Assembly (NCBI GenBank): GCA_027604505.1
Contig: JADIIX010000035.1
Span: 124,001-176,918, forward strand
Reading direction: 5' to 3'
DNA length: 52,918 nt
Source: Gonapodya sp. JEL0774
Taxonomy: Eukaryota
Positions 1 to 51,329 of this stretch are shown here, piece by piece (the stretch's first letter is position 1; each line of letters starts with the position of its first letter). Below the pieces are notes generated by a model. The model worked only from the letters and a program-made list of their open reading frames with translations. It was not told where the DNA came from and did no database searches. The position numbers and the translations under genes were made by a program.

Positions 1-94
1 TCTTGGTTCGTATTGTCTCACACGGGAATTGCTACACTCATCTATAAAAGTAATGTTTCCCGCATTTTTTTCACTTTCTTTTCATGATTGACAG

Positions 95-602
95 GTATGA
101 AAACTCTTGATCCCGAGGATTGGGCCTACCGAGGGTACTACGACAACTCTAATGACTCCGGTGATCCGAGTGTTGCGCATGGAGCCAACTATCACCAAGG
201 ACCTGTGAGCAAACCCCTTCACTAGCGCTTAATCGGGTGTTTTGTTAGTAACGTCCGTGCCTTTGAAGGAATGGTTCTGGCCGATGGGATATTTTCTTCG
301 TTCTTACATGAAGTTCCACCGAGGGCAAGTCGACAATTCTTCTCTGACTTATTTCGTCCAACGAGTGCTTCTCAAACCCAAACATCATCTATTGGACGTG
401 GTGCGGAGTCCGTTTGCGGGCCTTCCAGAACTGACCAATGCGAACGGGGAATTCTGTCCTGGATCATGTCCGACGCAGGTGAGAGGGAACCACAGGTATG
501 ATTAGGCTCACTGTGAGGATAGCGTTTATTGGCTTCCCTTTTCGATAGGCATGGTCGCTGGGCTGTCTTCTGGAAGCCGTACAGGACGCAGTTGTTACTT
601 AG
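95..602 (+). CDS. GDB1: Glycogen debranching enzyme (amylo-alpha-1,6-glucosidase domain), last 3 exons; gene starts upstream of window
   Basis: Exons 95-204, 269-478 and 549-602 with GT-AG introns splice to [22 protein letters not shown]...[18 protein letters not shown]...[35 protein letters not shown]. These match the diagnostic C-terminal motifs of AGL/Gdb1 (NYHQGPEW, GLPELTN, SCxxQAWS). Confidence 0.95.
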
Positions 603-888
603 ATATTATTCGTACAGTGTTGCATCATCACCTCGAAATGTCCGCGGTAGTCAACAGAAACAACACCCGTTGTCATCACTTGTATGTAGCAAAGTGGCAA
701 GAACCCGATCATGTAATTCAACAGTCTGTACTCCTATAATTTTCCGTCTCCCGGCATCGACATAAAGTGTACACCATCGGGAGATCCGGCGGATCAGACG
801 GCGATCGTGTCTGTGGGTGGACCATCCCTCAAGCTCAGGCTCCTCAGCTGCCCATTATTCTCACACGTCTCTTTCTCCCTCCATTTCG

Positions 889-3591
889 ATGGAAATCGCA
901 TCCATCCTCATTGGCATACACTCTCTAGGACTTTTCTCTTCCCTTCTCGGAGTGTTCCATTTCGCAACCGAGTCCACATTGCGTTGCTTTGGAATTGCTG
1001 CCGGTGGATGGGTGAGTGCAAGCAATGAGATGCCGACGTGACACGAGGGAACAAAAGAAAAGAATACGCTTATCAATATCGCCCGTACGGCGCTGCTGGG
1101 TGGTTTGGTTGAATTCGTGCTCAGCATTGATTGACTCTCCGGAGTTCGACCTGTCTTCGTCTCGATGCCGACCCATAGAGCACAACCAATCTTATTCGTC
1201 TCTCTCTCTACGGATACGATATGCATTCAACACCAGTGCGTGGTTTGATGTTTTTTGTTCCTCAAAATTCCGAGGTAGCTTCTGTACTGCCTTGCACCAG
1301 ATCATTCCATGCTTCGCTTTAAATCTCGTTTTAACTTATTCCGAATCCGCAATGGCGTGGTGGTCGGCGGCTTGTGTTTTGGAGTGACTATCTCGTCTGT
1401 CTGTTTGGTATTCCGATCGCTGATCAAAACCCACAACTACCAGATGCGCCATCCGTTACCTCAGTCCACATTCATCGAATCTTTTCTCTTTATCCAATAC
1501 CACTTCCTGTATTTTGACTGTCCTCGCCACATTCGTATTCCCCCTCACACCTGTCTTCATCATGATCGTGGCATCGACCGCGCCTGTTGCGCCATCGGTG
1601 CAGTATCTCCCTTCAATGTGTTTGATCTATTCTGCACATCCGACAGGATCCATGGTACTGGCTGTCGCAGAGTTGCTGAGCCAAGTGGCAGTTGCAGGGA
1701 CGGTGGGCTGGGCCACTTTGGTGACCGTGTGGGGAGGTGGGATAAGGTCTTGGATGAAAGGAGGGCCTACGTATGTAAGTGCCGCACGCTCGTGGGCCTG
1801 CTGGGAGTCAGAATCGAAGCGTAACTGCGTAACTGGTCCCTTCGATCCCGGTTCGTAGGACCGTCAATACGGTTCTGCAATAGACTTTCAAGACCATGAT
1901 GATCGCAGCTGGGAAAAGACAGGTAAGATTTCCTCGCAGCACCTATTCTTCTCTCTCGCTGCTTCCCTTTTCTTCTTCATTTACGACGCTGACTGGATCT
2001 CTCAATTACCTCACCCAAATCACCAGCTCTGGCAATCACGATATCTCTCTCATTCTTGGCCGTGCTCGTACTCCGCCTCATCGCCGCGTTCTCCCTCTCA
2101 TCGCTACCCGCGTCCACCACGATATCCAATGCACCGACGTCAGACTTCGGCAACGGATCAGGCCAAGGGTCCTTACTTACCGCTCATATAGTCACTGCAA
2201 TGTGTCCATTGGTGTATGCTGTGGCATTTCGATCGCCAAAACGGCCGGGGAAGTTAGGATTCGAGAGGAGGAGGATGAGCAATTTCCCTGAGCACGATCA
2301 GAGGATGGAAGCTGAGCTGAGAAGCTCCATTACCTCAAATCCTCGTACGAAATTGGGGAAAGCGGTATCGCTTAGTGAAAGAGATCTACATGTCGGTAAG
2401 GTGCTATCGACAGGTCGGGCAATGCAGGGCGAGTTGGGTCAGAGTCCAGTATTTGAGGTAGACGTCTCCAAACCACCTGGACACCGAGTTACCGAGCAAG
2501 CCCAGAGTCGCCGTGTTGACTTGGATGATCATGTGTCCCCCAGCCGTGGACGGCGGTCGAGACACCCTTGTCACACCACCAAGGTTAGCCCGTATGCTCC
2601 ACCACACGCCCTGCTTGAAACTGCATACACGATCGACAGCTTTGCGCAGTACTTGCCGGCGACGTATTGGTCGCGAGGATCTTCTCTGGAAAGTTCCGTT
2701 CCTTCAATCGTCACTGGAAACTCTCCACGATCTCCACGTTCCACACTCTCCTCCCTGTCGAGCATTCGAGGGACAACATTGTTGACTAGATCTGACGGCG
2801 AGTACAGCACATTTTTGGATCAGTCGTCCTCCGGTAGTTCTCCTTCCCGGCGAACCACCCTGTCTTTCTCCATCTCCCGGCCTCCTGCACCCCGTTCTGC
2901 CATCACTGTCCACAACCCTTTCTTTTCACCACGCTCGGAACCATTCACAACCGACTTGCTTGTCACGTCTTTGATCGTTTCGGACCTCGGACCCCGTGGA
3001 GGTCAAAGCACCTCAACCGAAAGCCAGGTTAGTCTGGGTGCTGGGAGTGGTGGCACGGTACCCAGCCTCAACGTGGGTGGGGTGAGAGCACCGGACAATA
3101 CCGCGGTGGATGTGGGGCACACCACGACCGACAGGGAGGTGGATGTGGGAGCTGGTTTGAGCGCGAAGGTGAATAATAAAGTCGCTGCAGCTGTGACGTG
3201 GAATGACGTCTGGGAGACGCGCCGAGCTAGTGGAGGCACTGGGCCTCTTAGTTGGTCCGAGGTTGGTGCACAGAGTGGTGATGGCTACAAAGGCGAAAGA
3301 ATGGATGCAAGGATATCCAGGATGGTGGACTTTGAGGAAGAAATACGGAGATTCGAAAGCATCGCAGGAGGTGCGGCCGGTGGGGTTGATGTACAAGGTG
3401 GATCCGACGTGGGAGTAACGTTGATCACAGGTGGTGACAGTGACCCACATCATCTCGTAGATGGAGGTGAGGGGCGCCAGATCACCACGAATGGATTTGG
3501 GACCAAAAGTAGAAACAGTGGCGCTCCGAGGCCAGGTCACGGCCATTGGTGGTCCCGGTCACGGGTGGCTAAAGCATTGTCTGGAGCGTGA
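889..3591 (+). CDS. Multi-exon polytopic membrane protein, probably 7TM GPCR-like, with long disordered Ser-rich C-tail
   Basis: Several hydrophobic exons: MEIASILIGIHSLGLFSSLLGVFHF; CFALNLVLTYSESAMAWWSAAC; ILTVLATFVFPLTPVFIMIV followed by ...MCLIY; VLAVAELLSQVAVAGTVGWATLVTVW; ISLSFLAVLVLRLIAAFSL; LLTAHIVTAMCPLVYAVAFR. These are followed by a ~440-aa low-complexity tail. Exon boundaries are only partly resolved. Confidence 0.55.
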
Positions 3592-4530: not shown

Positions 4531-6483
4531 GGTGAAAAACGTTCGGCGAAAACTCATTGAAAATTTTTCACTTTTCATTATGCGAGTCATTTGACGAGGA
4601 AACGGAACTGGCTCTTTGGTTTCATTTCCGAAAGGGATGCTTCGAGGCGAGAACCCCTTGGGTAGTAGAGAGAGTAGAGTTCGTTACATATCCTCTCTAG
4701 AATGCAAAAACAAGTAGCACGAGGAGACGTAAAGTGTATGAGATTATTATTTGAGAGACTCAAACGTGTCGTCTGGTAGGGGGAAGAACGAGTCAGTTGG
4801 ACAATTACAAAGTGTGAGAGAGGCAGCCATTCAGGATAATAGAACGTTGACTCAAAGCACTGAAAAGTCATACCTGCTTCTATCTCTCTTGTATGGGCTT
4901 CCGCAACATCCTTTCGGTCTTCATTTGGTTGGGAACCAGCAATACTGTCCCAGCCACCATCAGAGTCAGCTGATTCAACTTGAATTCCACTTTCACCAGC
5001 AGCAATTGGAAGCCAGCTCGATAATACAGGCGTTGACAAGCCCTCCAGGGACGTGGTAGCTTTGATGGGTATTGACAATTGACGACCCTCAGTGGCCCGA
5101 AGCGCTTTCTGCATTTTCAAGACCTTGTTTGCGGCGATTTAAAATTTGCACTCTGAGATTTGCGCTGCTGCTTATTTAAGCCAATCAGATTTGCAATGAC
5201 AAAGCTCTGTATGGGTTTCGGGGTTGAACGATGGTTCAAAGACAAGATAAACTAGGAGAGGTTGAAAACATCACTAGTAACCTATAAGCAACTTTGAGGC
5301 GGGTATGCTGTCCCGTTGACTGTACGCCGGTAGGTCCCGGTCCTCCGTGCGTCCAGCGTATGATTCCGAATTGATAGGTGAAAGATGTCCCGGGGTTCCA
5401 GTGGGAGCAGTCCGAGAGAGAGTGGGGGACCTCTCTCGGGGTTCGAAAAGAGCAAAGATCGGCATGACTTACCTGCGGTGAGTCCCCGAAACCAGCCGGA
5501 GGAGCGTATCCGATTTTTGTGAGTCCTCATGAGTTGCCGGATGGATGGCGAGCCTGAGCTTCGCAAATCAACGAAGATAGTCGACACTGTATCTCTGGAA
5601 GCAGAAAAATGAAGCTAAAACCCTACTACGCTTTGTGCGCAACAGATTACAGTCCACAAAAATGTCTCGAACAAGACAGGAGTGGCTCTCTGAACATTCA
5701 TGCACCTTAATGTTGTGAAACGTCGCCCTAACAAGCAGGAGACGTGCCAGAACATCTTATACACCTAGCTTTCATAGTGTTTCTCGGTGAAAACAACAAT
5801 CTCTATCTGGAGAGCGCGCTCACTCTCGCGCATTTTAATTGTCAACGCGTCGAAAATGCTAGCGACTGCTGTGCCACAAACGAGCCCCCCCAAGTGCGGC
5901 CATTCAATTGTGTGCGGGAGACACGATTTGAATTAACATTCAGATGTCCAAGGAGGACCCAGGAGAACACGCTTTCAAGCTTCTTACATAAAATATCATA
6001 TACGACAAGCACGGCCAAACACGGAGTGTGAGTTGCGAAAAGTGCAATCGAAGCGATGACAGCCCTCCATCTGCAAAAGTTACAATTCGTTATCGGAAAA
6101 GTGGGGCCGGTGCGCAATCGCCCCACTTTAATAGGAATTGAGATTAAGCTACGATGCGCTGTAATGTGATGGGTCTCACGATGGGAGTTGGTGCATGGTG
6201 GGGGAGGATCAGGATACTTTCGAGTTACAACTTGGAGTCAAATCGGTTGAACACGGTGTTAGTATGAGAAAATTCAATTTTAGACCGCATAGAACCCGTT
6301 GAAGGATGAAGTGCACTATTCTTGCTTCACAGGATATACCAGTACATCGCTGCTGTGACCTGACATGTGCCTTCATATTCCAAAAAGTTCTGCTTTCTAC
6401 CATAGACAGCGAATTTATGAGGCCCCTTTCGGCGAATGTTTGAGCCACTTATCAATCTTCTACGTGGCCGAGGCCAAACCACC

Positions 6484-6994
6484 TTATGACGGTCTCGAGG
6501 GGAAAATTCCTTGAAGGGCAATGATATAAGTTACACCCAAGGTGCCGTAATCTGCGTTGTTAATCCCACACGGGCTCGCAAGTGGAGCATCAGGCTTGTC
6601 CCCAAGGATAACATTCGCGAGTCCGCTTCCCTGCCCAGAGCCCACTGGCGTTCGCGATCGGAGATCGGGAAGGGCGAAGTTAGTCTGGCCTAAGAGAAAT
6701 ACCACCAATAAGGCGAGAGAAGATGTTACCAATACGCATAGCAGCACCACCTAGAGCAATGGCGGAAATACCGGCACCAATTAATTTACCGTTGCCGCCG
6801 TAAGTAGTTCCAAGGAGAGCAAATAGAGCTGTATACTGCGTGATGGGTAGAAGACGGCCATCGCAACGAGCCCAGCCACGAGGTTCAAAATCGAGAGCGA
6901 CAGGGCGTATTTCACCGACGAAGTATGATTGAGCCGATGTGGACGCTGCAAAGAGACCCCCCAGCAACGCGATTGTCAAAAGTGCTAGCCGCAT
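6484..6994 (-). CDS. Secreted phage tail-collar-domain protein, copy 1 (COG4675/MdpB-like, PF07484-like), 136 aa, 2 coding exons
   Basis: Exons 6994-6790 and 6689-6484, separated by a 100-nt intron GTAAAT...CTTAG. Product: MRLALLTIALLGGLFAASTSA (signal-like) + QSYFVGEIRPVALDFEPRGWARCDGRLLPITQYTALFALLGTTYGGNG|QTNFALPDLRSRTPVGSGQGSGL...YIIALQGIFPSRPS. This matches the collar consensus GEIxxF..PxGWxxCDGxLLxIxxYxALFxLLGTTYGGxGxxxFxLPDLRGR and the family C-terminus YIIALxGIFPSR. Confidence 0.92.
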
Positions 6995-7468
6995 GTGCTG
7001 GAACACGAGTCAGTCTCGCTGCCAAAGAGTTGGTCCAGTGATAGAGTCAACGCTTGCCTTCGGCGGCTCTTTCGCTGCAGCTTAAAGAACTATTTGTACT
7101 TGGTTGATGTGAGTATCGGGACAGTGGCTGAACAGACCAACAATCGCGGAAATTTCCAAAATGGGTTTTGGTGATCTTGGCTACTATGCAATATATTGAA
7201 TAATATAGGTACGAATCCATAAACACAAGGTGGCACCAGTTACAGGTGTGCTCGACGTATTGCCTATACTGGAGGGTCCAATTGCGGATCATTGTGATAA
7301 ACAACAACGCGTCTCGCGCGCATCACCGGACACTGCCAGAAATTGTGGTTTATCAGCTTCATTCCGATTCCCCAGAGGAAGAACGCGAGGAGGGAAACGT
7401 ATCGTGCCGTAAATCACAGACGTCGGTAGTGACCCTTCGATTGAAATCGGTCTCATTCTACTGGGTGA

Positions 7469-7528
7469 ATGCGTTCATCATTAACTATCGGTGCAGTCTT
7501 CGCATCAGTGGTGGGCGTTGCTACCTGA
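7469..7528 (+). pseudogene. Truncated relic of the first codons (signal peptide) of the LRR-mucin gene
   Basis: Reads MRSSLTIGAVFASVVGVAT* versus MWSSFTVCAVFASVVLLPA... at 9166. It lies at the equivalent position of duplication unit 1. Confidence 0.7.
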
Positions 7529-8127
7529 ACTTTTTAACTCCATAAGGTGTTTCTAAGAGATTGTCTCGAATATATGCAAGAAGCTCCCCAAAAACTCATC
7601 ATTACTGAATTGCGTTTACACAATGCCCGTTCCGGTGGAGGATGAGTATCTTGAACAGCAACCTTCATTATTCGATCAACCACAATTAAACCGTGCCGAC
7701 AAAGTTCCACCGTTTCGCAGTCGCCCCAATTAAACAGTAATTGAGATTAAGCTGCGATTGCGCTGTAACCTGGTGGGTCTCACGATGGGAGTTGGTGCAT
7801 GGTGGGGGAGGATCAGGATCAGGATGCTTTTCGAGTTCTAGCTTGGAGTCAAATCGGTCGATTTACCGTCACACTACTGTGTTAATATGAGAAAATTGCA
7901 CTTTAGACCGCATAGAACCCGTTGAAGGATGAAGTGCACTATTCTTGCTTCACAGAATTTACCAGTACATCGCTGCGGTGACCTTACACGGGGCCTCATA
8001 TTCCGAAAAGTTCCAGCTTTCTACCATAGACAGCGAATCTAGTGCTCCACTTTCGGCGAACGTTTCAGTTAGTTATCCACATCGGTGCTTGCTCAATCTT
8101 GTACATGGCCTACTGGGAAAAATCACC

Positions 8128-8647
8128 TTATGACTGTCTCGAGGGGAAATATCCGTTGACGGCAATGATATATTTTAGTCCCAAGGTGCCGTAATTCGCC
8201 TTAGTAATCCCACACGGGCTCGCAAGTGGAGCATCAGGCTTGTCCCCAAGGATAACATTCGCGAGTCCGCTTCCCTGCCCAGAGCCCACTGGCGCTCGCG
8301 ATCGGAGATCGGGAAGGGCGAAGTTAGTCTGGCCTAAGAGAAATACCACCAATAAGGCGAGAGAAGATGTTACCAATACGCATAGCAGCACCACCTAGAG
8401 CAATGGCGGAAATACCGGCACCAATCAATTTACCGTTGCCGCCGTAAGTAGTTCCAAGGAGAGTAAATAGAGCTTCATTCTGCGCGATGGGTAGAAGACG
8501 GCCATCGCAAGGGGCCCAGCCAACAGGTTCAAAGTTGAAAGCGACAAGGCGTATTTCGCCGATGTACGGCCCGTCAGTTGTAGACTGAGCTGATGTCGAC
8601 GCCGCAAAGAGACCCAACAATGCGATTGTCAAAAGTGGCAGCCGCAT
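8128..8647 (-). CDS. Secreted phage tail-collar-domain protein, copy 2, 139 aa, 2 coding exons
   Basis: Exons 8647-8434 and 8333-8128, with a 100-nt intron at the same position as copy 1. Product: MRLPLLTIALLGLFAASTSA + QSTTDGPYIGEIRLVAFNFEPVGWAPCDGRLLPIAQNEALFTLLGTTYGGNG|QTNFALPDLRSRAPVGSGQG...YIIAVNGYFPSRQS. Confidence 0.92.
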
Positions 8648-9165
8648 GTGCTGGAACACGAGTAAGTCTTGCTGCCACAGGCTGGACCACGGATAGAGTC
8701 AATTCGTGCCTTTGACACCTCTTTCGTTGCAGCTTCAATGACCGTTCGTACTTGTTTCAGGTGAATATTCAGAGAGTGGCTGAAGGGACCAAATGTGGGG
8801 AAATTTCCAAAAAGGTCCAGTGTATGTTATTGCGACAAGGCTGATCTTGATCTTGATATAATAGCTGGCTATGTACCTGGACCTGGAATTTACAAGATAT
8901 CCGATATATATTGTCACGCCACACACCAAGCGTTGCTGTCGCTTTCAGTTGCCCTCGACATATTGGATATACTGGAGTGTCCAATTGCAGATTTTGATGA
9001 ACAAGAACGCGTCTCGCTAACGGATCACTGGACACTGTCAGAAGTTGTGGTCCAGCTTCATTCCGATTCACCAGAGGAAGAAAAACGTTAGGACAGAAAC
9101 GGATCGTGTCGTGAATGACACAGCGGTGACACTTCGAGAGAAATTGGTCTTATTCTACTGGGTTG

Positions 9166-11827
9166 ATGTGGTCGTCATTTACCGTCTGTGCAGTCTTCGC
9201 ATCAGTTGTGTTGTTACCTGCCGTTCGGACAGCTTTCGTTGCCAGTCCGGACTGCAGCGTCCTAAAGAAATGGGTGATTTCTCAAAATCCTTCGACATTC
9301 TGGCCGTGGAGCTCGGATGGCACTGGAGAGCTTTGTTGTGACGACAGCGGCGCCACGTCCACTTTTAGCAGCGTTGGCGGAACAGTCGTTGGAATCCAGA
9401 TAACTTGCAATAAGTTTGGCGGCACTAGCTGGAAGGTCAAAGACTTCTCCTTCTATGGCAATAATGCTGGGAGTCTCGGTGTTGTCCCGGACCTCTCAAC
9501 GTTGTCCGCCCTCAATACACTTCGTGCACAATTCGCCGGTGTCTCCGCTATCCCAGTCTCCTCAGGCACGGTCAATCTTCCTCTCAGCACAGTTGACTTG
9601 GTTGGAAATCCCAAACTAGCTGGATCTTTTATCGATGGAGTTCTGCCCTCGGGCCTCTCTGTATGCAACCTGGGGTGTAGCGGTGTTATCAATTATTGCT
9701 CTTCTCCTGCCGATGCATGCTTAATCAACCCCGTAAACTCTCTTCAAATCGGTGAGCATCATAAGGGGTTGAATATGAATATGTTGATTATAGTGTGGAA
9801 ACTGTTCCTGCCAACAGTAAGCTGCACAACCACCCGATCGACAACAAGTCTCACCACAACGTAGGTTGAACTTTCCTGAATTTGTCTATTGACTCTCACT
9901 AACTGGCGTTCCCGCCAGCTTAACCACTCAATCCACGACAAGGCAAGTCTTATAGTTCCGTCCCATAACCTTTTCCGCTGATGCTCATCTAATAAATCCA
10001 AAGTCCGACAACATCGACCACAAGCCAAACAACTGAAACGTGCGTGATGAGTAAACCGTTGCTTCTAACGATATTATCTCATGTTCTCCGCAGCACATCG
10101 ACGGTGTCAACAACACAATCGACCACAAGGTACGTTGGCCCTTGTGATTAATCCGCCACCCACACGATATCTTGTGTCGCTCATCCGTTGCAATTTGAAT
10201 TTGCAGTGAGACACCATCAACCACAACAGAAACGTGCGTTGGCGAACAAACCATTGTTTCTAAAGAGACGNNNNNNNNNNNNNNNNNNNNNNNNNNNNNN
10301 NNNNNNNNNNNNNNNNNNNNNNNNNNNNNNNNNNNNNNNNNNNNNNNNNNNNNNNNNNNNNNNNNNNNNCTGACGTTCTCCGCAGCACGTCCACGGTGTC
10401 AACCACGACAACAACCACAAGGTACGTTGGCCCTTGTGATTAGTCCGCCACCCACACGATATCTTGTGTCACTCATCCATTGAATTTTGAATTTGCAGTG
10501 AGACACCATCAACCACGAGTCAAACAACGGAAACGTGAGTGGACACAAAAACTATTAGTCCCGTCGTTTTGATTTGACGTTCCCCACAACCCAACCACAC
10601 AACCCGAACATAGAACCCCGACGTAAGAAGCCTTTTAATCGGGTACTGTCGGGTCAGGCCGTAAAAGATCTCTTCGTGTTAGAGCGACAAAAACCACTCC
10701 AACGCCAGCAAAATCAACAAAAACAACAACGACCTACCCGGCTTTACCCTCGAAATTGACCAAAACTACAGTTTCTACGAATCATCCAAAGCCCACAACT
10801 ACCGCCAAGAGGACTTGCGATAGCATCCACGCAGCATACATTGCTGGAAATAAACTGACCCACCAAGATTATGATGATTGGGAAGCATGGTGGGTAATTT
10901 CCCTTCCAAGTGCCAGGACTTTGAAATAACCAAATTGTTTTACATACTCGCCACCGAAAAGGGATTGTTATAAATGGTTCCCAGATGTACGTACACCGTT
11001 TCTTTCCGCTCCATCAAATTCTGAACGAATTTTCGAACATTGTAATTTCCAATATAGGGAATCACGAATAAGAACGAGAAAACATGCGATAGTATATACG
11101 CGTCTTTCAGGGCTGGGAATGAGATGACGTCGCAAGATTTCTCTGATTGGGATGCATGGTGAATCCAAAGAAAACTGGCGCGTTCTTGAGCTTTTTTGCT
11201 GAACATGTATTGTCGTGGTTGCAGGGCATGCGACAAATGGTACCCCGCGGTGCGTCTCTTAGATCCGCGCATTGTGGTTTGACTATATTCATCATCGTCA
11301 CTGGGTAAAACAGGGCATCGGTTACAAGCGGACGTGCGACTCTATTTTTGCTGCGTATACTGCGGGCGAGACGATGAGCGACAAAGACTTTTCAGATTGG
11401 ACTCAATGGTATAGATCACGTATGCCTGATTCTTCGACGCTGTTTTAACGGTTGCTGCACATTAGGGCCTGCAAAACGTGGTTCCCAAGCGTAAGTTCTT
11501 TTTCACACGGTGCCTGAGAATTTTTCCGCAAACTTTTGGTACCTTGTTGGGAACATAAGGGCATTGGACAACTTGCCACGCGATCATGCGACACAATATA
11601 TGTCGCCTACAGTAACGGAATCAAGATGACTTCTCAAGACTTCTGGGACTGGGAACGATGGTGGGTGAAGCGCAAATTGACTGAATGTCGTACCTTCTCA
11701 ATCAACAAGTTTTCTGGATGATAGGGCGTGCAATACTTGTGAGTTTCTCATGGAGGACCTTTGTCGTGTTTTGGTGCTTACACGCCTTCACCAACCGTCA
11801 GGGTTTCCGGGTGGTATTTGGGGATGA
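9166..11827 (+). CDS. Secreted modular protein: signal peptide + LRR-like head + Thr/Ser mucin stalk (micro-exons) + 4 tandem Cys/Trp modules; spans assembly gap
   Basis: Exons 9166-9751, 9818-9860, 9919-9942, 10004-10039, 10094-10129, 10207-10233, [gap], 10386-10421, 10499-10534, 10614-10622, 10683-10889, 10962-10986, 11058-11158, 11225-11249, 11314-11408, 11466-11490, 11560-11660, 11725-11738 and 11802-11827 splice in frame with no stops. One donor is GC-type (9943). The head has an LRR N-cap-like DCxxL..W..CC...ITC and LRR-like segments (GVVPDLSTLSALNTL, VDLVGNPKLAG). Confidence 0.82.
10083..10560 (+). repeat. Tandem intron+micro-exon repeat unit (~190 bp) flanking a 99-N gap; copy number unresolved
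   Basis: gttctccgcagcac...accacaaggtacgttggcccttgtgatta.tccgccacccacacgatatcttgtgtc.ctcatcc...gaatttgcagtgagacaccatcaaccac occurs at ~10083-10240 and ~10375-10540. Ns occupy 10271-10369. Confidence 0.9.
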
Positions 11828-22802: not shown

Positions 22803-25800
22803 TTATGTCCATCTTTCTCCCATGTCAACAACTTCATCTTTGAATAACTCTGCCTCCCATTTCTCTACCCCCTCCAAACGATCCACCATGCCCCTTGCTG
22901 CACGCCTCACCGCTTTCCATGCATCCACTCTGGCTTTCAAGGCAACGATCTGCACACCGAAATCTTCTAGCGCTGCTTTGTCCACGGGTGCCAATGCTTC
23001 CATTGCAACTCGCTCTGACTCGTCCTCAGTTTCGACCCGGCGCTCCCGTGCTCTCGCAGCCGCGTCCATCACCGCTCCACGAGAGATTCGTAATGCGACA
23101 TTGGTTTCCAAAGCTCGCCATCGGTCCGTCCTCGCAGCCGTGAGATCTGCTTCCAATACTGCAACCTTTTCCTCCAAGGCACGATTCGCCCCGATGAGCT
23201 CAATCTCCTTTGCAATTAATGCGTCTCTCTTGGTCTCAAGGTGCTCCACCATAGCAGAATTTTCCCTCCGAGCGGTGGCGGAGTCACGAATAGTGGTGTT
23301 CAATGTTGCTTTAAGGTCAGACAGTCGCGCCGTTACGCCTCGGTGGAGTGTTTGAGCGGCATCAAGTGTAGCTGTCAAGCCAACAAGTTGAGAAGAGAGC
23401 AAGAGTTCGTTGGATTGAGCGATGGAAATCATCGCGGAGTTGGCCTGAGAAGTATCGTGGAGCACCCGATGATTCTCGACCAGTTCGGCAAGACAAACTC
23501 GAAGATGTGAAAGACACGTCTCCTTTGTCACTGCCGAGTTTCGGAGTCTTTCATGCACAGATCGAAGCCTGGCCGCCTCGTACAGATTGACATCCACTTT
23601 GTCTCCGAGGTTTTGCAGCTTCAGCATCGCATCCTTCCTATAGCGCTCCATTTCCGCCTTCACGTCCTTCTCTTCTGCCTCCGTAGCTCTCTTCAACTCC
23701 CTTGTCTTGGCAATCTCATCCACAATCCTCCTCTTCTCCTCAATCTCCTCTGCTTTTCGTTTTACTGCAGCGTCCCTCCTTGCCTTCATTTCAGCAACCT
23801 TCTCCTCCGATTCATCCCTCGTGATCCTCATTTCCTCCGTAAGCTCATCGGCACGTGCTCTTTCCCTTTCCAATGTCATCTGATATTCCTGTCGGCGGAC
23901 GAGAGCAGCTTCCTTTCTGTCTTTTGCCTTCTTCTCTTCAGCCTTGGCAACGTCCATTTCCGAGGCAAGACTTTTTTGCCGTTCATCCAACTCCAAAACT
24001 TCCTTGCTGTGCCGAATCTTTGCCGCCTCAAGCTTGCTTGTGCTTTCCTTCGCCAGTTTTGCTGCTTCTCGCTCTGCAGTTTTCAGCTTCTGCCCCTCAA
24101 TTGTGGCTTCCTCGACCTTCTTTCGCACAGATGTCGCCTCGTGGCGCACAGCCTCACCTCGCTTGGTCAGGTCGTCAAGTGTAGTCTTAAGCTGTCGCGT
24201 GGCTAGTTCATACTCCTTATGTTTGTCCTCATTCTCCCTCCGCATTCGAGCATTTGTCGCGCGCTCTATACCGAGCGCAGCTGTGGCCTGTTGCAGCTGT
24301 GTAAACGATTCTGAGTTTTCCGCTGAGAGTCGCACCACAACTGGCTCCAGGTCCGCAGCTTCCTTTTCTAGTGTCTTCATCTGAATCTGCACGTGGTCCC
24401 TCTCGAACTCTAAACCGTGCAGCTCATCGATCCGTTCACTTAACACTGTCCGCGCACGGTCCACACTGCGAGCGACGCTGGACGCAGAGCGTTGTAGGGC
24501 GGCATGAAGTTCGCGGAGATCCGAGGATCCCGCAGAAGACTCGAGATGGAGGCGGGCTGAGAGACGAGAGAGCCTTTCGGTGTCAAGAGAAGTTTCGTAG
24601 AGGCGCGATTCAAGGGAGGCGAGAGTGGAGCGGTGGGTGGCGACAACAGATGCAAGGGAAACTGAATCTTGAAGGAGAGTGGTGATAGTAGCCTCTATCT
24701 AAAGTGGAGAAAGGTGGAGAAAAGGGGAGCGAGATAGTTTCGGCCATATTCTGTGCATGGTTGCAACACCTGTGCAATTTATACATACGTGTTTCCGTTC
24801 CTCACCACTTAACCACCCCCACACCGCGACTTCTCCGCTCAGAATCTTCATGTATCGCAAGTCCTTCCGAAGTTTCTCAACACCGTTTTCCGTCCACAGT
24901 CTAGCAGCCTCTTCGTACCTCGTCGCCACTTTGACAGCCCATTGAAGCCTTCGTATCGCATCGACGTTTCGCGACAACGACACATTGGCAGAAAACAGGA
25001 GAGCCTGCAAAGCAGATAAATGATGGCGCGCAGCAGCAAGATAGGATGGGTAAAGGTGCGGGGTAATTTGGACGTCGTCGGCAAGACGGATGTTTTCATT
25101 AACGTTTGAAGCTGAAACATCTTTCTGATGTGGTTGAGCGGGGTCGTCGCCAGCCACAGACGTACGGCCAACGGGTGACTCATTCAAACGAACGATTCTC
25201 TTTTTCACGGGGAAATCGGACGGGTGGCGGTGCACTTCCGAGGAAAATATTTCATGGGGTTGATAGATAACGAACGTGCTCGTCAGTTGGGCCGTTGGTC
25301 TGGCCTCTCTCCCACTATCGTGGCTCAAGTCAACTGGGGGAGACATCTCTGTATCTGACGCTTGGGTCCCACCGGGGGTCGTTCCTGGCACTTCCAGATC
25401 CGGTGTTGTGATGTGCGTGTCGTTGCTACCTCCCAAACCATCCGGCACAGGTTGAAATCTAGACACGGCAGAATGGGAACCATCTCGGCGGGCGTTGGTT
25501 ATCAGTGCCTCAGTGTCCGCACTTATGCCAAGCGATTGCTTGACTCCCAGCTGCCCTAAGTCGAGTGCACTCATACCGAACTGATAGTGGACGTGTCTCG
25601 CAAAGCAATGCTCGAAAGCGTCTATCAGTAAGTTCTCGCATTCTGGACAAATGTTGGTGGGTGGTCCTTCCGTGTTCTCAACGGTTAGAGTTCTCCGATT
25701 GTTGCCGCCGTCATCATCCTCCGTGAGCGTGGTGCTCGAGTCATCTGCAGTCAGCTGACCAGAATAAGATTCTTGAGAGGAATTCTCGAGCAGTTGAATA

Positions 25801-25952
25801 TCCCGCAGAGAAGAAGAAAGCGTTGGCGGAAGCCTCACTGCTGGGATGTTCTGTGCGTCATCGGTAACAGACAATGCCGTTTTCAGCAGTTGCTCATCAA
25901 GACGGAGATTGAATGGGTTTTCTTCAATAGAAAACTGTCCAAGTTCATTCAT
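22803..25952 (-). CDS. Large coiled-coil protein, 2 exons, function unknown
   Basis: Exon 1 ~25952-24789 (MNELGQF...EERKH|gtatgt) and exon 2 24698-22803 (tttag|IEATITTLL...) join in frame with the 553-aa E/K/R/A-rich heptad ORF. Confidence 0.75.
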
Positions 25953-26055
25953 TGCGTGCGTTCCCGTCTGCGCAGCAGTCCACAATATATGTGACACATT
26001 TTCCCACGATACATAATAAATGTACAAAAAGTAAATATAATGGCACCTCAAAAGA

Positions 26056-29000
26056 CTACTTTCTTCGGGTTGAGGAACCCGACTTTCCTCCGATTGCGAC
26101 TGCATGTGTGGATCCTCCAAAACCTTTGGTTGGTAGTACTCGGAGCTGCCGAAGACCGGTATCATACTTAAGGAACGCCTCGACAGAGCGTTCGTCGATA
26201 GTGGGTGGCCCAGTGCCACAGAGTTTCCTTGTTCGCACACTGGCCACGCCACCACCATGACCACCTTCACTAGGCCCCCGCTCGACCACCAGCTCGTATA
26301 GTGCACGAAATTTATGATCTCGCTCCTCTTTGACTGCAATCACGAAGTTGTCAGCGCTACTTGAATCGATGGCCTCAAGAGCTTCTCGCTTGGCCGCTTC
26401 GTTTATTGCACCCGCTAGGAGAGACTGTAGAGCGTTCTTTATAAGCGCTCGTGTGGAAGATGGACGGATAGGATTGATTGCAAGTTGGGATTTAGTGGTG
26501 TTGCCAGATGGAACTTTCAGTTTGGCAGTCGTGCGAGTTGTCGCTATAACAATTGTGTTACTCGAGGCCAAACACTTTGCACACTGTATGTCTCACCATT
26601 TATTGATTCTGGTTCAACTCGCTGAACTGTTGAGTTCACACCCTCTACCCGGCGCTCCAAAGTCACAAATCTGTCGTTCAACGTACTGTTTGATCTTTGT
26701 TTCTCCGTCTGCAATCCCTCATCCAGTCTTTCCTCTTCAGCACTTCCATTTAATGTTGCGTTGGAATCAACCCGCGAGTTGGGGTGCTTCAGCTTTTTCT
26801 CTGAGGTTCCTTTATTCCCTTTGCACACAGATTTGGGCACACAGGGTGACACGCCTACTTCTTCGACTCCAGGTCGCAAAACATCGCTGGGCTTTGTTAG
26901 AGAGGGTTCTGCGATATTCGTTTGGTTGATTTTCGTTTGCTGAGACTTGCCTCCCACAGATTTCATTGATCTGACAAAGTGTTTTCGTGTGACCGCTTCC
27001 CACGATGCCTCGGACGTCAACTGTGGCATCGAATGGTGTTCTTTTGGTTTGAGAGAGATGAGATCATGTGGCACGATGCCGTTCAAATGTTTGGTACTCT
27101 TTTCGTCTTGAATGCTCACGAAATATGCCATTCCGCCTTTGGATGTGCGAACCGAGTCTTCATCAGTGTGCCCGAGCACCAGTGTTTGGTTGAAGAGTAT
27201 CTCGTCTTCAGATAGGTGGTCAGGATTATGTGACGTGTTGTCGGTCAACTCAAGAGCAACATCTCTTTCCAAATTGTCGGGGTATCGACCTATCTCACCC
27301 TCCTTCAAAGGTTCCATCATTGATTCGGTCAGTTCCCGAGAATTTTCGTGCTGATCTCGAGTGCAATCTTCGGGAGCATCACAAATCGGGATCAAATCAT
27401 CCATCTGGAGGTTATCCATTGGGCCGGAGTCCACCTTTTCGAGCTTATTGCACACTTCGATCCACTGCCAAGGTAATGTGATCTTTGGTGCAGGAGTTGA
27501 CGCTTCCTCTGCGTCCAGCTCCACAGCATCCGCAACAACTTCCGGCATTGCTTCCTCTTCTCCAATCTTCTCTTTGCTCACATCTTTGAGCCAGCCACTT
27601 TCTTCAACCCTGCGATCTGGAATCACATCGGGCTGTGTCGGCGGGCACTCATCCCTAATGTCTTCTTCAAACACGTTCATGCTGGACGACGGAAGCTCTG
27701 GAATTGCTGCGTCGATGGTTGGTTCAAGGTGCCTGTGACAATGTTGTGCCTCTAAGTCGAGGACCGTAACGTGGGGAACCTTCGCGTCATGTGAAGGAAT
27801 TTCCCCATCAGACTCGGGCAACGTAACCTCTGTAACCGTTGCGTCATAAGAATGAAGTTCCTGAAGAGACGATGAAACCACTGAAGCGGATGGAACCCGA
27901 GGAAGTTTTGCTCGGCGGCGAACCTTAAATGTTGGTACAGTGGTGCGAGCTGATTGCGAGGACATTGTAGAGCCATGAGTTTGTGCGGGGAGGTCTGTGA
28001 TTGTGACGACAGTTGGAACGTAGGAGTCCATTGACAGGGATTGAAGGCTCGACTCGCTGGCCGCGACAACCTTAAGCAACTCAGAAGAGCCCGGAGCTTT
28101 CTCAACGTGGTTTGCTCCAACAATGGCTTGATTCCGAATTCTTAAGTCTGTTGGGAACTCTTCCCCAAACCATTCTTCCTCACGATCAATGATTATGGTT
28201 CTCGCTCCCTCATACTCGTTGTATATCAGTTCTGATGCCGCCAATTGAGCTTCCCCACCACAAAGTTTACCGCAATCCTTTGAGAGAGAGAAAACACTAT
28301 TATTCTTGCAAATCTGTTCCTCAACGAGGTCTTTCTTTTGGATGTTGGACGAAGTCTCGAAGGACAAAGTTGATTCACATATATCTTCAACTCCATCAAG
28401 CAGATCTATCTCAGGTGAAACCGTTGATATTGAATTTGGGGAGCTTGATGAAGCCAGACTGTTCGTTTGCGGTAAAACATGCCTTGCCGGATCCGTAAGC
28501 ACTGTCTGCTCGGTGATGCTGGTGTCCTCCAGGTTTTTCAATGAAATCACACATTCAACGGCCTCAGCTCCACGAGGATCACCTTGGAAAACACCCTTGT
28601 GCTCTGAATTGTTGGCTGTCAAAGCCGGCTCGTCTCCGTCGGTTTGGACCTCTCCTTGACCGCCACATTCGTATAGAAGAGTGGGAGTAAAAGAGGGCGA
28701 TGGACTCTCCGTAGAATGATGTTCCATTATTGCCGGATGCTCTGGTAACTGTCGATGGGAATTCACCGTGGACTTTCGAGATGAGGCCCTGTGTGAAGCA
28801 CTTCCTTCTTTCGCATCATCGAGCTCTCGGAGCTTCTTTCTGGGCATCCGAACTCGAAGAAGCGCATGGCTGCTGTTCACGGAGCTAGGCGCCATGGCAT
28901 GTGAGGAGGCAGGCTGAGCTTCCTCCACATGTGAGGAATTGGGTGGTTTATCTTCCTCTGGTTCCGTAAGCATATTCGCATATGTAGAATGAGTACACTC

Positions 29001-30770
29001 CTCGATCCGCTCCGATCTTGAAACGAATTTGAGTGAAGTTTCGTCGGAACGTGAGAGGTCGACCGCCTTCTGCCTTTCAACCGACTCTGCGCCCTTGTGA
29101 GTGCACTCCACAAACAACACGCTCGCAATCCTCGTCGCAACCTCTTCTAGTCTCATTTTTGAGCCATCGTTTTCTATCGAGTCCAACTCCGACGGGAGGA
29201 ACAGTGGTCCAAAATGGTAAGCTCCGGGATACGTTAGGATCAGCGCACGGGAGAGGTGGGGATCAATGAGAACGTCAACGAGGAGATCCTTTGAGGCCAG
29301 GTTTGTGGGAGTCCTGTCAGAAACCGCAGAGATGAGAGAGTGCAGCCAGGTCTGAAAGTGAGTGGATAACGGAAGACTGTCCGCAGCATCGGATGTAGTG
29401 TGATTCGCTTGTCGACTCAGAAGTTCAGAACGTATCCGCCTGGAGGAGGCACAGAGATCAACAAGATTCTCAGTTCTTATGCCAAAGTCGTTGGTTTGAA
29501 TTCCCTGAGGAGCTGCTCATCTCACCTCGCCTCATCCAGCACAATTTGTGCGTCCACAATTACACACTTGTCGAGTACTCTTTCCATCACCACGATGTGC
29601 GCTTCCTCGCAGATAGGATCGGTCTGAATCAACTTCGCAACGACGTCGGGAGCTAAGTCGAGGTCCCGAACAATCATCTTCATAGCCTCACCATCGGTGT
29701 CTGGCTGGCATGACGTCTCCCGTGATAAAGCACGAGAGTCAGGTGAATGTAGCATTTGGAAAGAAAGCAGATAGAGCCGACCAGAGGAGAGTAGATTTAG
29801 TAGAGAGGGCGAGCGGATTGTAGTGGACTGCAAAAGTTTTTGGGGGGAATCAAAAACCTGAATAAACTCCCAATTTAAGTTCAAATTATTGCGCTTCCGA
29901 GTATTGTGGAATGTTTGGGATGTCTTTTGGCGTCGCTATCTGAGCGAGATTCTGCACCATCCGGATGTAATTCTCTCTGCCAATATGTGTCAAACTCACG
30001 TCGACTTCACTTAGCTTGATTCTATGATACTCGATTTCCTCGAGCCAGCCAGGCCATGTCGCAGACACCACGCGGGCAACGTCGGCATTATATGTATCCC
30101 GAGACCGGGCGCACAATAGCGATAGCAGAGAGCGAAGGTAAACTTTGAATGCGAGGTTCCTAACCTGATGCTCGAGCGTGAAGGGGAGTGCTGGAACCAT
30201 AACAGTGGCATTTGGAGCACAAGATGCTGGACGACCACCTAGTGCAGATAAGGAAACGGAGGAAGGTCGTGTACGGCGTGCGGAGCTCGAAAGCGACCTG
30301 CGTCCAGGATTTATACCGAGTTGGTGTGCGCGGGCTGCATAGCTCTCATGCAGTAGTGTGAGAAGGCACAAGGCATCCGGGATGTTTCCTCGCCGAACTG
30401 ATTCTAATCTTTCCAAGTCAAACGCCCCATCGGGCAGTACGCGCTGCAGTCCTCTTTCCAATCGGGCAAATGTTTCCTCAATAACATTGGCGCGTTCTCC
30501 TCGCAGGAACTCATCGGACGCAAACCATCCAAGGTTTATTGCACGGGGATCCACTAGCGCAACTACTTCTGCGAGCGTAAACCCATCACTAAACTCAGAT
30601 GCTGGATCAATTTCTCGGGAGAGTAAGCACCGGAGCCATTCCAGTGATTCAGAGTGTTTTCGTGCAACGAAATCCGAACTCTCATCAGGCGAATCAGAGG
30701 ATTCCGCAGGATGGCTGGACTCGGAATCACGTGAAAAGGTAAGTGAGGATGAAGGAGGTCGGGAGCGCAT
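26056..30770 (-). CDS. CAMSAP/Patronin-like protein: N-terminal CH-like domain, long disordered middle, C-terminal CKK domain
   Basis: The C-terminus STRALIKNALQSLLAGAINEAAKREALEAIDSSSADNFVIAVKE..HKFRALY...GTGPPTIDERSVEAFLKYDTGLRQLRVLPTKGF matches the CKK pattern (I.NAL..CLAG.VN, HFLILF, FRALY, G.GP, KY+S..K.F..IP.K). The N-terminal WLRCLL..EID..SEFSDGFTLAEVV..VDP is CH-like. A ~53-nt intron joins the 880-aa ORF to the CKK exon. Confidence 0.82.
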
Positions 30771-42491: not shown

Positions 42492-43913
42492 TCAAACTGA
42501 ATCCTGTACAACACAAACACCTCTCCCCCACATATCATCCCGCCTCACATCCCTCCGACCTCGCAATTTCCAAAATGGAGTCCCTTGCAGCCACTCTCCA
42601 GATTCGACAGAGTCCCGTTCGTATATGACACCGATATTGAGGTAGCTCCGGTGAAAGTACGGTCTCCCCACGTGTCGCAGACGCGGCATGAGATGCCAAT
42701 TGCATCGAAGCCACGATTCAAACATGGCTTCATCCATGCTGTCGGCTCCAATGTAAAGGTACTCCAAGCGGCGACCATAACGAGCGATTGCAGCGAGGGC
42801 ATGTGTTGGGGGAAGTCCATTGGGGCATTTGCTCATTGTGATTACTCGCAAGAATGGATTCGCCTCCAAAATACGCTCAAAGGCGCTGGTCAGGTTGTGG
42901 GCTGGTCGGCCGTCAGTCCCAGCGAGCGGCGCAAAGGGCCATGTCTCCAACCCGCCAAACGCTTCAAATTTCAAAACTTCAATAGTACCGCGGCCAGCCA
43001 AGTTCTTTACAGCAGAGATGTCACCAAGTATGCTTGTAGGGGACTCAGGAAACAGGAATGTGCGCAGGCCCGGCATTCGCGAGAGCCAGGCACTTGAGCA
43101 AGGGGCCTTCTTCAACGTGGTTCCCCGAAGCTCTGCCAGTGCCGCCAAGTGTCCTTCACGCATTCCGATACCATGCAAAAAATCGACGGACTCCAGGTTC
43201 GGCAAGATTGTGAGCATCCGTCGAAACTGCGGGAGGGACATCTCCGCAGCAGTTTGAAAATATCTGAGCGCTTGGAGCCTTGGCATCAAAGCTTCGACTT
43301 GCTCAATGTACATAGTTCGTACGCTGTCTCGTGGGGCCCCAAATCCCACCCTCTCTAGTCGGCTGATGTTGACATCCGGATGAAGCAACGGCGCCAAGTC
43401 CATCGCATTGCCATCCGGGTCGGGGCATAGAAATACACCCCGCAATCGGCTTATAAGAGCATGTTGATTCTTCCACAGCCGCGAGGGCATAGCGAGCTCA
43501 GTGAGATTTGGGCAATATTGGGCAAGCTGCATCACTGATGGATGATCAATCTGCGGGGCATAAAGATACCGAAGACCCGCGAGCGGAGTTACCGCTAGCA
43601 ATTCTCGCAGTGCATGATGATCGGAGGCGCCATTCGTTTGAACTAATTGTAGGTCCACTTCCCTAACTGATCCCTTGTCCCTGTCCAATCCCATTCGCTT
43701 CCACCACGACAGAATTTTGGTGATGCCTTTGACGCCATTAATTGAGCGCGGCCGTATGACACGCACGAGCTCACAAGCGGCGATGTTGTCCCATTCGCGA
43801 GACACGAGTCTGAGAGTGCACAGAGATCGCGCATCGCATTCTCTTCCCAGATGGAAAGCAATGAGGTAGAAAAGATCGGACGGGAGGTCGTGAGAGCCAC
43901 TGTGAGTGTTCAT
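42492..43913 (-). CDS. F-box protein with degenerate LRR (RNI-like) region, apparently intronless
   Basis: DLPSDLFYLIAFHL....SLCTLRLVSREWDNIA (F-box) is followed by LRR-like segments (LAQYCPNLTEL, ILPNLESVDF, ANPFLRVITMSKC, YGRRLEYLYI). The likely start is ATG 43913 rather than the ORF-track start. Confidence 0.75.
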   Translation of the reverse strand: MNTHSGSHDLPSDLFYLIAFHLGRECDARSLCTLRLVSREWDNIAACELVRVIRPRSINGVKGITKILSWWKRMGLDRDKGSVREVDLQLVQTNGASDHHALRELLAVTPLAGLRYLYAPQIDHPSVMQLAQYCPNLTELAMPSRLWKNQHALISRLRGVFLCPDPDGNAMDLAPLLHPDVNISRLERVGFGAPRDSVRTMYIEQVEALMPRLQALRYFQTAAEMSLPQFRRMLTILPNLESVDFLHGIGMREGHLAALAELRGTTLKKAPCSSAWLSRMPGLRTFLFPESPTSILGDISAVKNLAGRGTIEVLKFEAFGGLETWPFAPLAGTDGRPAHNLTSAFERILEANPFLRVITMSKCPNGLPPTHALAAIARYGRRLEYLYIGADSMDEAMFESWLRCNWHLMPRLRHVGRPYFHRSYLNIGVIYERDSVESGEWLQGTPFWKLRGRRDVRRDDMWGRGVCVVQDSV

Positions 43914-44094
43914 GAGGCAGGAATGGCTGTTGCTGGGGTGTGCGACCGAGTTATTTCTAAGGGAATTGCGGGTCAGGTTGGGGAGTCTGGGGGATTTTGA
44001 TGTCTGCACGGCATGGGGCTGTCGACAGACTGTGGGGAGTCGGCTAACACCACCGACCGTTCCATTCCCGAATTCATCTCCAAATTCTATCAAC

Positions 44095-45508
44095 ATGGAT
44101 CGCCTCTCCAGCCTCTTAACCACTGCTTCCGAGAGTACAGGACTATCAAAGCCCGTCATCGCATTGGGGTTGGGCTCTATTCTCGCAGGCGCGCTGTATT
44201 CATTCGGCGCCAAATCCAAAAAAATTCACTCGGGAAAGGGCTTGACGGCCCTCGTGACAGGATGTGATACAGGTGAGAATGTTGAGAGTAGCGTGGCTAC
44301 TTAATCGAATGTGAGATCACGAAAACATGGCATATGACAGGTTTTGGACCAATGATTGCCATCCAACTCTCCCAGAAGGGATTCACCGTATACGCTGGTT
44401 GTCTCACTAACGATGGTATAAGCCGACTCAATGCCCTTGGTATTCCGAACCTGAAGCCGGTTTTGGTGGGCAAGTGCGCGATTGGATCAACAGCAACAGC
44501 GGAAAGTTGATCAATTTCATTCAAACCAGATGGACGTAACGCGGGACGACCACGTAAAAGCAGTAAGGGAACGTGTCGAGAAAGAGTCGCCGGAAGGTCT
44601 CTACTGTTTAGTCAACAACGCCGGTGTAGTTTCCGCCTACAAGTGGGAACTGTCACCTCTCGACGCTGTGAGGAGAGACGTGGAAGTTAATGTGAGTGTT
44701 TCTGAAGATAAATTTATTCCAATATTGATTTGCAAACGATCTTTTTATGCAGTACCTTGGTGTGGTTCGAGTGTGCAAGGAGTTTCTCCCTCTCCTCCGC
44801 GTATTCTCCCGCAGAGTCCAAACCGGTGCCGTCAACTCTCCCAAGCCCCGCATTGTGACTATCTCGTCGGCTGCAGGGACACAGAGGTCGACTCCCCTGG
44901 GTGAGTTGTTACTGTTGGGAGAATATGGCTTGTGACTGAGGGCGCAATGACGATGTTAGGATCCTACATGGCCTCCAAGCACGCTCTGCAAGCATTTTCT
45001 GGAACGCTGCGGCAGGAGATCAAACGTCAGGGTATCTTATACTCATCAATTGAGCCAGTGAGTCGATGGTCTGTCCAGCTATCTCTCATCCCAACCTCAA
45101 CCTCACCCCCCAATTGCAAGTTCGTCTGCGAAACCCCTATTGTCACCGAAAACGCCAGCTCTCAGAAGAAAATCGATTACATCGTTGGGAGTAACAGCAA
45201 AGAGGTGTTGGACGTCTACGGAGGGGAGAAGGAGATCAGACGGCGCATGGCGCTGAACGGAATCCACACGCGAGTCACGAGCATGCTGCCTCCGCAAATG
45301 GTGGTTACGGAAGTCCTGGAGCAGACGCAACTTGTGAGTTCTGAGAATACCGTTTGTTTTCCTCTTCCCCGCTCACCAAGGCGTACAGTATGTCCCTGGG
45401 TTTCATGTCCCTGTTGGTTTTGGCGCGAAGCTCTTGATATTTATGACCAATTACTTGCCAGCGTGGTTCATGGACGATCTCGCACTCTCGAATGAGGACG
45501 CAGCATAA
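44095..45508 (+). CDS. Short-chain dehydrogenase/reductase, RDH/17beta-HSD6-like (SDR9C type) with N-terminal membrane anchor
   Basis: ALVTGCDTG|FG, GFTVYAGCL, MDVT, GLYCLVNNAGV, EVN|YLG, RIVTISS, catalytic YMASK, IEP. Confidence 0.92.
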
Positions 45509-51264: not shown

Positions 51265-51329
51265 TTTTGAGTTGAGAATGTATTGTGTTGTGTCGGGTCC
51301 ATGATATTATCACAAACCATCACAAAGAA

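Follow-up and report, generated by a model that had tools for sequence, protein, structure and literature searches.

Introns made of mitochondrial DNA are known but rare. As far as the accessible parts of these reports go, one such spliceosomal intron sits in a GTPase-family gene of Bigelowiella natans (PMC4757882), an intron of Daphnia pulex comes from 16S rDNA (PMC3443670, PMC4202315), and the candidates proposed for mitochondrial introns in Drosophila are weak matches with E values of up to 0.1 (PMC3296678). Table 1 of a 2012 review lists five intron gains by break repair, and one of the species is an Aspergillus (PMC3443670); fungi are therefore not new to this class. Organelle fragments within introns have been reported (PMC12730881), and the source of most new introns is stated to be unknown (PMC4202315). 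In early-diverging fungi, bacteria-derived genes gain introns and duplicate, and Gonapodya prolifera is described as prone to intron-rich xenologs (PMC11291939). The available text of that study does not mention collar or PF07484, and two of its supplementary files contain none of the terms collar, PF07484, and microcystin. The literature searched, in which subscription journals were thinly covered, held no collar gene in fungi, no atp9-derived intron, and no report of a mitochondrial-DNA intron inside a transferred gene. What stands out at the locus described here, in a monoblepharid fungus that the NCBI protein of one of its genes names as Gonapodya sp. JEL0774, is a traceable intron source, limits that are exact to the base, and a position inside a gene that was itself likely transferred.

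Results

Two tandem collar genes carry the same insert

The window, meaning the whole 52,918-nt stretch analyzed here, contains a tandem pair of collar-domain genes (PF07484), both on the minus strand. Gene A has its ATG at 8647 and ends at 8128, and gene B has its ATG at 6994 and a stop codon ending at 6484; with the insert removed, they encode 139 and 136 amino acids, respectively. The preliminary description had proposed two intact tail-collar genes of these spliced lengths, each broken within a conserved motif by a 100-nt GT-AG insert, and the open reading frames and the Pfam matches bear this out. In gene A, exon 1 (8434 to 8647) encodes a signal-peptide-like leader and the start of the collar domain (E = 2e-18), and exon 2 (8128 to 8333) encodes the remaining collar, a 45-residue arm without HxH, the family C-terminal strand, and the stop. 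Between them lies the phase 1 insert (8334 to 8433), 100 nt of atp9 with GT-AG ends that is likely a spliceosomal intron. In gene B, the same atp9 piece (6690 to 6789), identical to the gene A insert at 99 of 100 nt, separates exon 1 (6790 to 6994; E = 4e-19) from exon 2 (6484 to 6689), in which the Collar match continues. Exon 1 covers positions 1 to 42 of the 57 in the Pfam Collar profile and exon 2 resumes at 44 to 57, and it is because the match splits in this way that the domain is read as interrupted by the insert. Exon 1 alone scores 66.5 and 68.6 bits in the two genes, above the curated PF07484 cut-off of 24 bits; the exon 2 E values are 0.076 and 0.048.

The tandem duplication in the fungus also stands. 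The duplicated units (7710 to 9220, matching 6107 to 7527) extend into non-coding flanks. These flanks differ at 130 of 817 aligned nucleotides. As they were duplicated along with the genes, the gene already had its leader and upstream region in their present form when it was duplicated. No third collar copy emerged when all six frames of the window were searched with a profile, and the two copies compare to three adjacent ones in bacterial triplets. Near the C terminus, the alignment of 8165-8150 with 6521-6506 allows for two mutually compensating 1-nt indels that together alter three residues and keep the frame.

Introns had also been proposed in the 5′ untranslated regions, at 8751-8651 in gene A, a 101-nt stretch that stops 3 nt short of the ATG, and at 7099-6998 in gene B (102 nt). 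Both have GT-AG ends, and their acceptors fall in the range of host scores, but the gene B donor is weak, scoring under all 22 host donors used for comparison. The two are plausible candidates, weaker than the atp9 insert.

Other features of the window were noted. On the plus strand, positions 1 to 3591 appear by eye to hold an intron-bearing multi-pass membrane-protein gene with a long low-complexity tail, for which no family or Atlas match was found. A small cysteine-rich ORF (9166 to 9864, plus strand) lies head to head with gene A; it has a leader-like start, looks LRR-like by eye, and has no Pfam match, and its first ∼55 bases recur in the gene B unit. Three long minus-strand ORFs of 631, 546, and 990 amino acids (22803 to 29516), without a Pfam match and possibly parts of one very large gene, adjoin a weak CH_2 match at 29.9 to 30.8 kb. 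Weak matches were seen to F-box-like (42492 to 44225, minus strand), short-chain dehydrogenase (44905 to 45495, plus strand), and methyltransferase (51305 to 52572, plus strand) families, the last of which resembles Coq3.

The insert matches atp9 from end to end

The atp9 origin of the insert went unnoticed in the first reading of the sequence. Translated in the exon 1 frame, the insert matches ATP-synt_C (Pfam, E = 0.00097), and in a pairwise comparison it aligns without gaps to residues 3 to 38 of the host ATP9 (P0122), with 30 of 36 residues identical. A protein search with the insert stretch returned five proteins among seven candidates, namely, the two gene models and three ATP9s: that of the host and a near-identical one, both at 83%, and a third, less closely related, at 64%. 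The reference for the protein comparison was the host ATP9 itself, and that for DNA was a set of 27 related atp9/atpE loci, 5 of which gave matches. The closest of these loci (L001; 88% identity to the host ATP9) aligns with the insert along 100 nt, gap-free, at 84 to 85% identity (E = 1e-24 to 1e-25). Outside the insert limits the match drops, to 2 of 19 nt upstream and 8 of 20 nt downstream. The atp9 match thus begins and ends at the splice sites.

Two observations point to a mitochondrial source: the related atp9 in L002 adjoins a nad6-family gene, and the host ATP9 (KAJ3335539.1), whose gene is on a 15,535-nt contig, has no presequence. The insert therefore likely came from the mitochondrion of the host, and the protein alignment to the host and the DNA alignment to its relative supply the homology to a presumed mitochondrial gene of the host that would be expected of a NUMT. 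A bacterial atpE was considered as the source and ruled out; the host ATP9 is the closest protein (83%, compared to 64% for the next cluster), and the DNA matches are few. Rfam gave no match in 5800 to 9400, so that the idea of the insert as a structured RNA or a group II element is unsupported.

The insert is likely removed as a spliceosomal intron

First, removal of the insert restores a spacing that is nearly invariant in the family, namely, exactly three residues at the insert site, as seen in 345 of 353 homologous motifs. Second, the splice sites resemble those of the host. They were scored with a matrix built from 22 introns of a single gene, the pyruvate carboxylase gene at 46 to 51 kb. 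This gene (46212 to 51264, plus strand), which has more than 20 short introns (∼22 to 23), served as the splice-site control; it lies beyond an N gap at 10271 to 10369. Its introns were predicted by a frame-preserving search, because the guide protein matched only the N-terminal part, and 2 of the 24 predicted were dropped as doubtful. The insert donor scores 7.2, above 7 of the 22 host donors and thus in mid-range, and the acceptor scores 8.8, higher than any of the 22 host acceptors. Within the 240 nt around the insert, no other donor or acceptor scores better. Third, the conserved open frame is restored by removal, and the exon 2 motif F-x-L-P, at columns 97 to 100% conserved, is kept.

One feature speaks against splicing: the 100-nt insert exceeds the length of the host introns, which measure 52 to 91 nt (22 introns, one gene). 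A YTNAY motif lies 20 nt before the end of the insert; such a motif occurs in 15 of the 22 host introns compared to 12.3 after shuffling (P = 0.16), and since it is not enriched there, this branch-like motif is uninformative. From the sequence features listed here, the 100-nt atp9 insert is likely removed as a spliceosomal intron.

Selection and probable gene conversion between the copies

Comparison of genes A and B shows purifying selection on the predicted protein in both exons. The leaders are hydrophobic, reaching a mean hydropathy of 2.13 over the best 15 residues, and differ by 8 silent changes and 1 replacement (pS = 0.41, pN = 0.02; Fisher p = 0.0001); both findings agree with the signal-peptide-like leader proposed for each gene. 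In the conserved blocks of the mature domain, 16 residue differences sit on residues tolerated in the family, with a value of 35.6 compared to a neutral expectation of 101 ± 17. Exon 1 shows this bias (P < 0.001), and so does the end of exon 2 when taken alone (P = 0.006 to 0.013). In the mature domain outside the homogenized tract described below, pN is 0.18 and pS is 0.17; a pN/pS ratio of about 1 lends no support to positive selection in this domain, and the equal values also fit relaxed selection.

A 259-nt tract around the insert (8205 to 8463, minus strand) is 99% identical between the copies, with two copy-specific differences, whereas its flanks are 79 to 88% identical. It was likely equalized by gene conversion, and the insert may have entered one copy and then spread by conversion to the other. 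Since the insert lies inside the homogenized tract, it may be younger than the selection inferred from the A/B comparison. This leaves room for an alternative in which the atp9 piece is a disabling insertion spread by gene conversion, the genes, working before its arrival, are now young pseudogenes, and the GT-AG ends are partly coincidence. The equal pN and pS of the mature domain agree with such decay, and so does the short time available for damage: at the divergence of 4 to 5% accumulated since insertion, the frame of one dead copy would survive by neutral chance in 12 to 18% of cases, compared to 3% at 8% divergence. However, a disabling insertion gives no reason for an invariant spacing to be exactly restored on its removal, for an acceptor that outscores every host acceptor, or for two intact frames with F-x-L-P retained. 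Decay of the pair is thus unlikely, and a functional intron is the preferred reading.

A second alternative is that the insert is partly or wholly translated, yielding either a 107-amino-acid retention product anchored in the membrane by the first ATP9 helix or the product of a shorter intron in gene B. Both forms are annotated by NCBI, which models gene A as unspliced (107 amino acids) and gene B with a different intron. The conflict between these models over near-identical DNA suggests that they were predicted without RNA support. The insert is indeed open in the exon 1 frame and is still hydrophobic (1.54, compared to 1.75 for the host ATP9). However, either product would lack the F-x-L-P strand or the whole latter half of the collar, and this is reflected in the scores against the family profile: 152.5 and 144.9 bits for spliced A and B, respectively, compared to 94.2 for unspliced A and 98.0 for the NCBI model of B. 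The splice sites of the alternative intron are weak (3.6 and −2.6), and two changes in the insert bring an arginine into the ATP9 helix. Translation of the insert is accordingly given little credence relative to its removal.

An assembly artifact, either a collapsed repeat in which only one copy has the insert or mis-joined mitochondrial reads, would account for a tract so much more alike than its flanks, and the N gap at 10271 to 10369 also speaks for it. The sequence of the insert makes this very improbable. It differs from the host ATP9 at 4 complete codons, which requires at least 5 base changes over the 33 complete codons, so that it is an aged nuclear copy and not mis-assembled mitochondrial sequence; a collapsed repeat is in turn at odds with the two copy-specific differences within the tract. 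One of the differences from the host ATP9 is a Val/Ile exchange, with Ile present in two of three relatives, and this change may have arisen in the mitochondrion.

The collar genes are most closely related to bacterial triplets

In a search with the collar stretch, those named among the best 120 of 184 matches were bacterial or were labeled microcystin-dependent protein. A representative library gave 11,256 matches at E 0.001, and the Atlas clusters of the matches are bacterial or viral. None of 20 representative proteins looked up carried a eukaryotic name, many of the 20 having no name at all; other eukaryotic members may exist, as most homologues come without a species name. The best matches in bacterial genomes (76 to 77% identity) belong to chromosomal triplets, which we take to be the family labeled COG4675/MdpB, and 60 of the 65 bacterial loci with full flanks have exactly three collar domains. 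Viral contigs contributed 13 loci, the best at 69%.

The neighbors of the bacterial genes were scanned in 38 loci chosen from the 147 listed (99 ORFs). A GNAT gene was found in 15 of the 38 loci and Ig, cadherin, SprB, DUF11, or collagen surface-protein domains in 12, and no capsid, portal, or terminase family appeared among the 99 ORFs. Neither a GNAT nor an adhesin neighbor of the fungal pair was seen among the 63 window ORFs scanned. The phage origin suggested in the preliminary description is thus not favored; the closest relatives are bacterial, the viral matches are lower, and phage structural genes are missing from the scanned neighborhoods. The phage link is one of remote ancestry. As a separate observation, bacterial genomes of many phyla (L028-L107) share a module of three collar genes, a GNAT acetyltransferase, and a large Ig/cadherin-type surface protein, sometimes with DUF6916, and this module may be an under-described adhesin-tip system.

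A tree from a quick search (162 rows from 462 domains plus the fungal pair, 99 columns) joins the two fungal domains with a support of 98 and places them among bacterial and metagenomic domains, the nearest being two long-arm proteins (support 86). This nesting is in line with the prokaryote-to-fungus transfer that had been proposed. By the sequence comparisons, the collar gene was likely transferred from a bacterium, although the tree does not single out the donor; in this fungal group, such bacteria-to-fungus transfer is nothing unusual. That the gene resides in the fungal genome is supported by the piece of the host's own atp9 that it carries. Bacterial contamination, which might be entertained because the clearly fungal pyruvate carboxylase gene sits past the scaffold gap, can be set aside on account of that atp9 piece and of a gap-free left flank with an apparent intron-bearing gene (by eye), and an old, vertically inherited fungal gene, for which eukaryotic homologues might hide among the nameless matches, is equally implausible, the exon 2 arm having found as its sole match among 64 candidates the gene B model itself, which is weak evidence.

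Leader, arm, and predicted fold

Leader-bearing bacterial collar proteins exist, and the preliminary description had allowed that the leader was inherited from one of them. This is not favored: the tree, with weak support, separates the fungal pair from the leader-bearing bacterial proteins, and the five best full-length single-domain relatives that were read start without a leader. Descent from leader-bearing, short-arm bacterial proteins was also considered and receives no support from this quick-search tree. Six bacterial proteins (P0142, P0145, P0146, P0147, P0151, and P0168) consist of three fused collar repeats, some of them with leaders, and hits related to such three-repeat proteins carry Sel1, dockerin, or PEP-CTERM domains.

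The fungal arm has 45 residues and no HxH; in the family, 59 of 462 domains have arms of 55 residues or fewer, and the median is 99. The HxH motif is present in 372 of the 403 long-arm domains. As a structural stand-in, P0142, a secreted three-repeat bacterial protein with an equally short arm, was modeled. The model folds as one unit (pTM = 0.83) and compares with T4 gp12 and other tail-fiber tips at middling Z scores of 5.0 to 5.8 (rmsd, 1.8 to 3.8; 79 to 106 residues). A Foldseek search with this model turned up nothing at an E value of 0.001 or below, with the T4 gp12 and A-1(L) fiber rows ranking near the top, and none of the solved structures matches exon 1 in sequence. The fold of P0142 and the position of the bacterial triplets beside adhesin genes together suggest a trimeric tip module. 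By this analogy, binding of the fungal protein to a surface, e.g., a bacterial envelope or a substrate glycan, is predicted with a confidence somewhat short of even. More tentatively, the protein might be secreted and form trimers, in which, to judge from the bacterial triplets, A and B could be mixed. The full assimilation of the gene and its role as an adhesin, lectin, or antimicrobial factor, as put forward in the preliminary description, are conjectural.

Discussion

The junctions suggest how the predicted intron may have been gained. The dinucleotide GG is present at both ends of the insert, although a 2-nt repeat also arises by chance. The donor GT is native atp9 sequence and belongs to a Gly-Lys codon pair. 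At the 3′ end, atp9 reads CGTAA and the insert reads CTTAG; two predicted host introns end in CGTAG, so that a first acceptor of this form would be usable. The bacterial homologues are uninterrupted at the site, and no close orthologue was found.

The following route is proposed. A bacterial collar gene would have entered the fungus, where its arm was shortened and a leader was probably gained. A staggered break within the Gly codon would then have been repaired by end joining with mitochondrial atp9 DNA as filler, duplicating GG. The acceptor AG would consist of the last A of the atp9 piece and the duplicated target G, with the donor GT pre-existing in atp9; alternatively, the acceptor arose by a later A-to-G change. 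If it formed in one step, the intron would have been spliceable from the start, and splicing would regenerate the original sequence exactly. Gene conversion would later have equalized 259 nt across the copies, and the mature proteins would be secreted and trimer forming, acting as a surface-binding tip. We infer the break-repair route from the junctions as a whole, the 2-nt repeat alone being weak evidence.

We regard the account in its entirety as probable, that is, a bacterial collar gene that received a piece of host-mitochondrial atp9 through break repair, likely splices it out, and encodes a secreted, trimeric, surface-binding tip. A stronger version, to which we lean only slightly, is that of a three-source gene, in which bacterial coding sequence, a fungal leader, and a splice-ready, one-step atp9 intron were combined, with the intron converted between copies that are diverging into subunits of a binding trimer like that of phage fibers. 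If true, the latter would provide a traceable example of intron gain by a transferred bacterial gene and of the use of a collar protein by a fungus.

The value of the locus is that a strong match, base-exact limits, and an empty site made unambiguous by hundreds of bacterial homologues occur together. It could show directly whether filler DNA from the mitochondrion is spliceable as soon as it is inserted. Here the gain of a likely intron is also linked to the way in which a transferred gene is assimilated, and the fungal repertoire is extended by a predicted secreted tail-collar protein.

Comparison with known systems

Distant counterparts are T4 gp12, the T4 long-fiber tip, and the tail fiber of cyanophage A-1(L), all of which are trimers. 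The modeled bacterial stand-in P0142 indicates that the collar fold is shared with them. The relation is remote, however, and the fungal genes have neither a fiber shaft nor a phage context.

The three-repeat bacterial proteins resemble the fungal pair in two respects: the arms of P0142, P0146, and P0151, which are secreted, measure 45 to 48 residues, and P0142, P0151, and P0168 (the last from Gimesia) have by eye a hydrophobic leader, as the fungal proteins do. They differ in having three repeats per chain and in standing apart from the fungal pair in the tree, and from this separation the short arm and the leader are probably convergent.

The bacterial microcystin-dependent/tail-collar triplets are the best matches, sharing the collar and the C-terminal strand with 76 to 83% identity over the collar stretch. 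Compared to them, the fungal locus has two genes and not three, a leader, an arm of 45 residues (median, 99) without HxH, and no GNAT or adhesin neighbor seen.

The xenologs described from early-diverging fungi (PMC11291939) are likewise bacteria-derived genes with intron gain and duplication; in the accessible parts of that work, the sources of the introns are not traced. The introns of Bigelowiella, Daphnia, and Drosophila, so far as the available accounts describe them, share with the Gonapodya insert an intron-like size, GT-AG ends, a mitochondrial match, and the short direct repeat that repair of a double-strand break is expected to leave. The Gonapodya case differs in that the interrupted gene was itself probably acquired from bacteria and in that the predicted intron is wholly collinear with atp9 coding sequence. 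Finally, the origin of both of its splice sites can be followed to the junction, and its match has an E value of 1e-24, compared to values of up to 0.1 for the Drosophila candidates.
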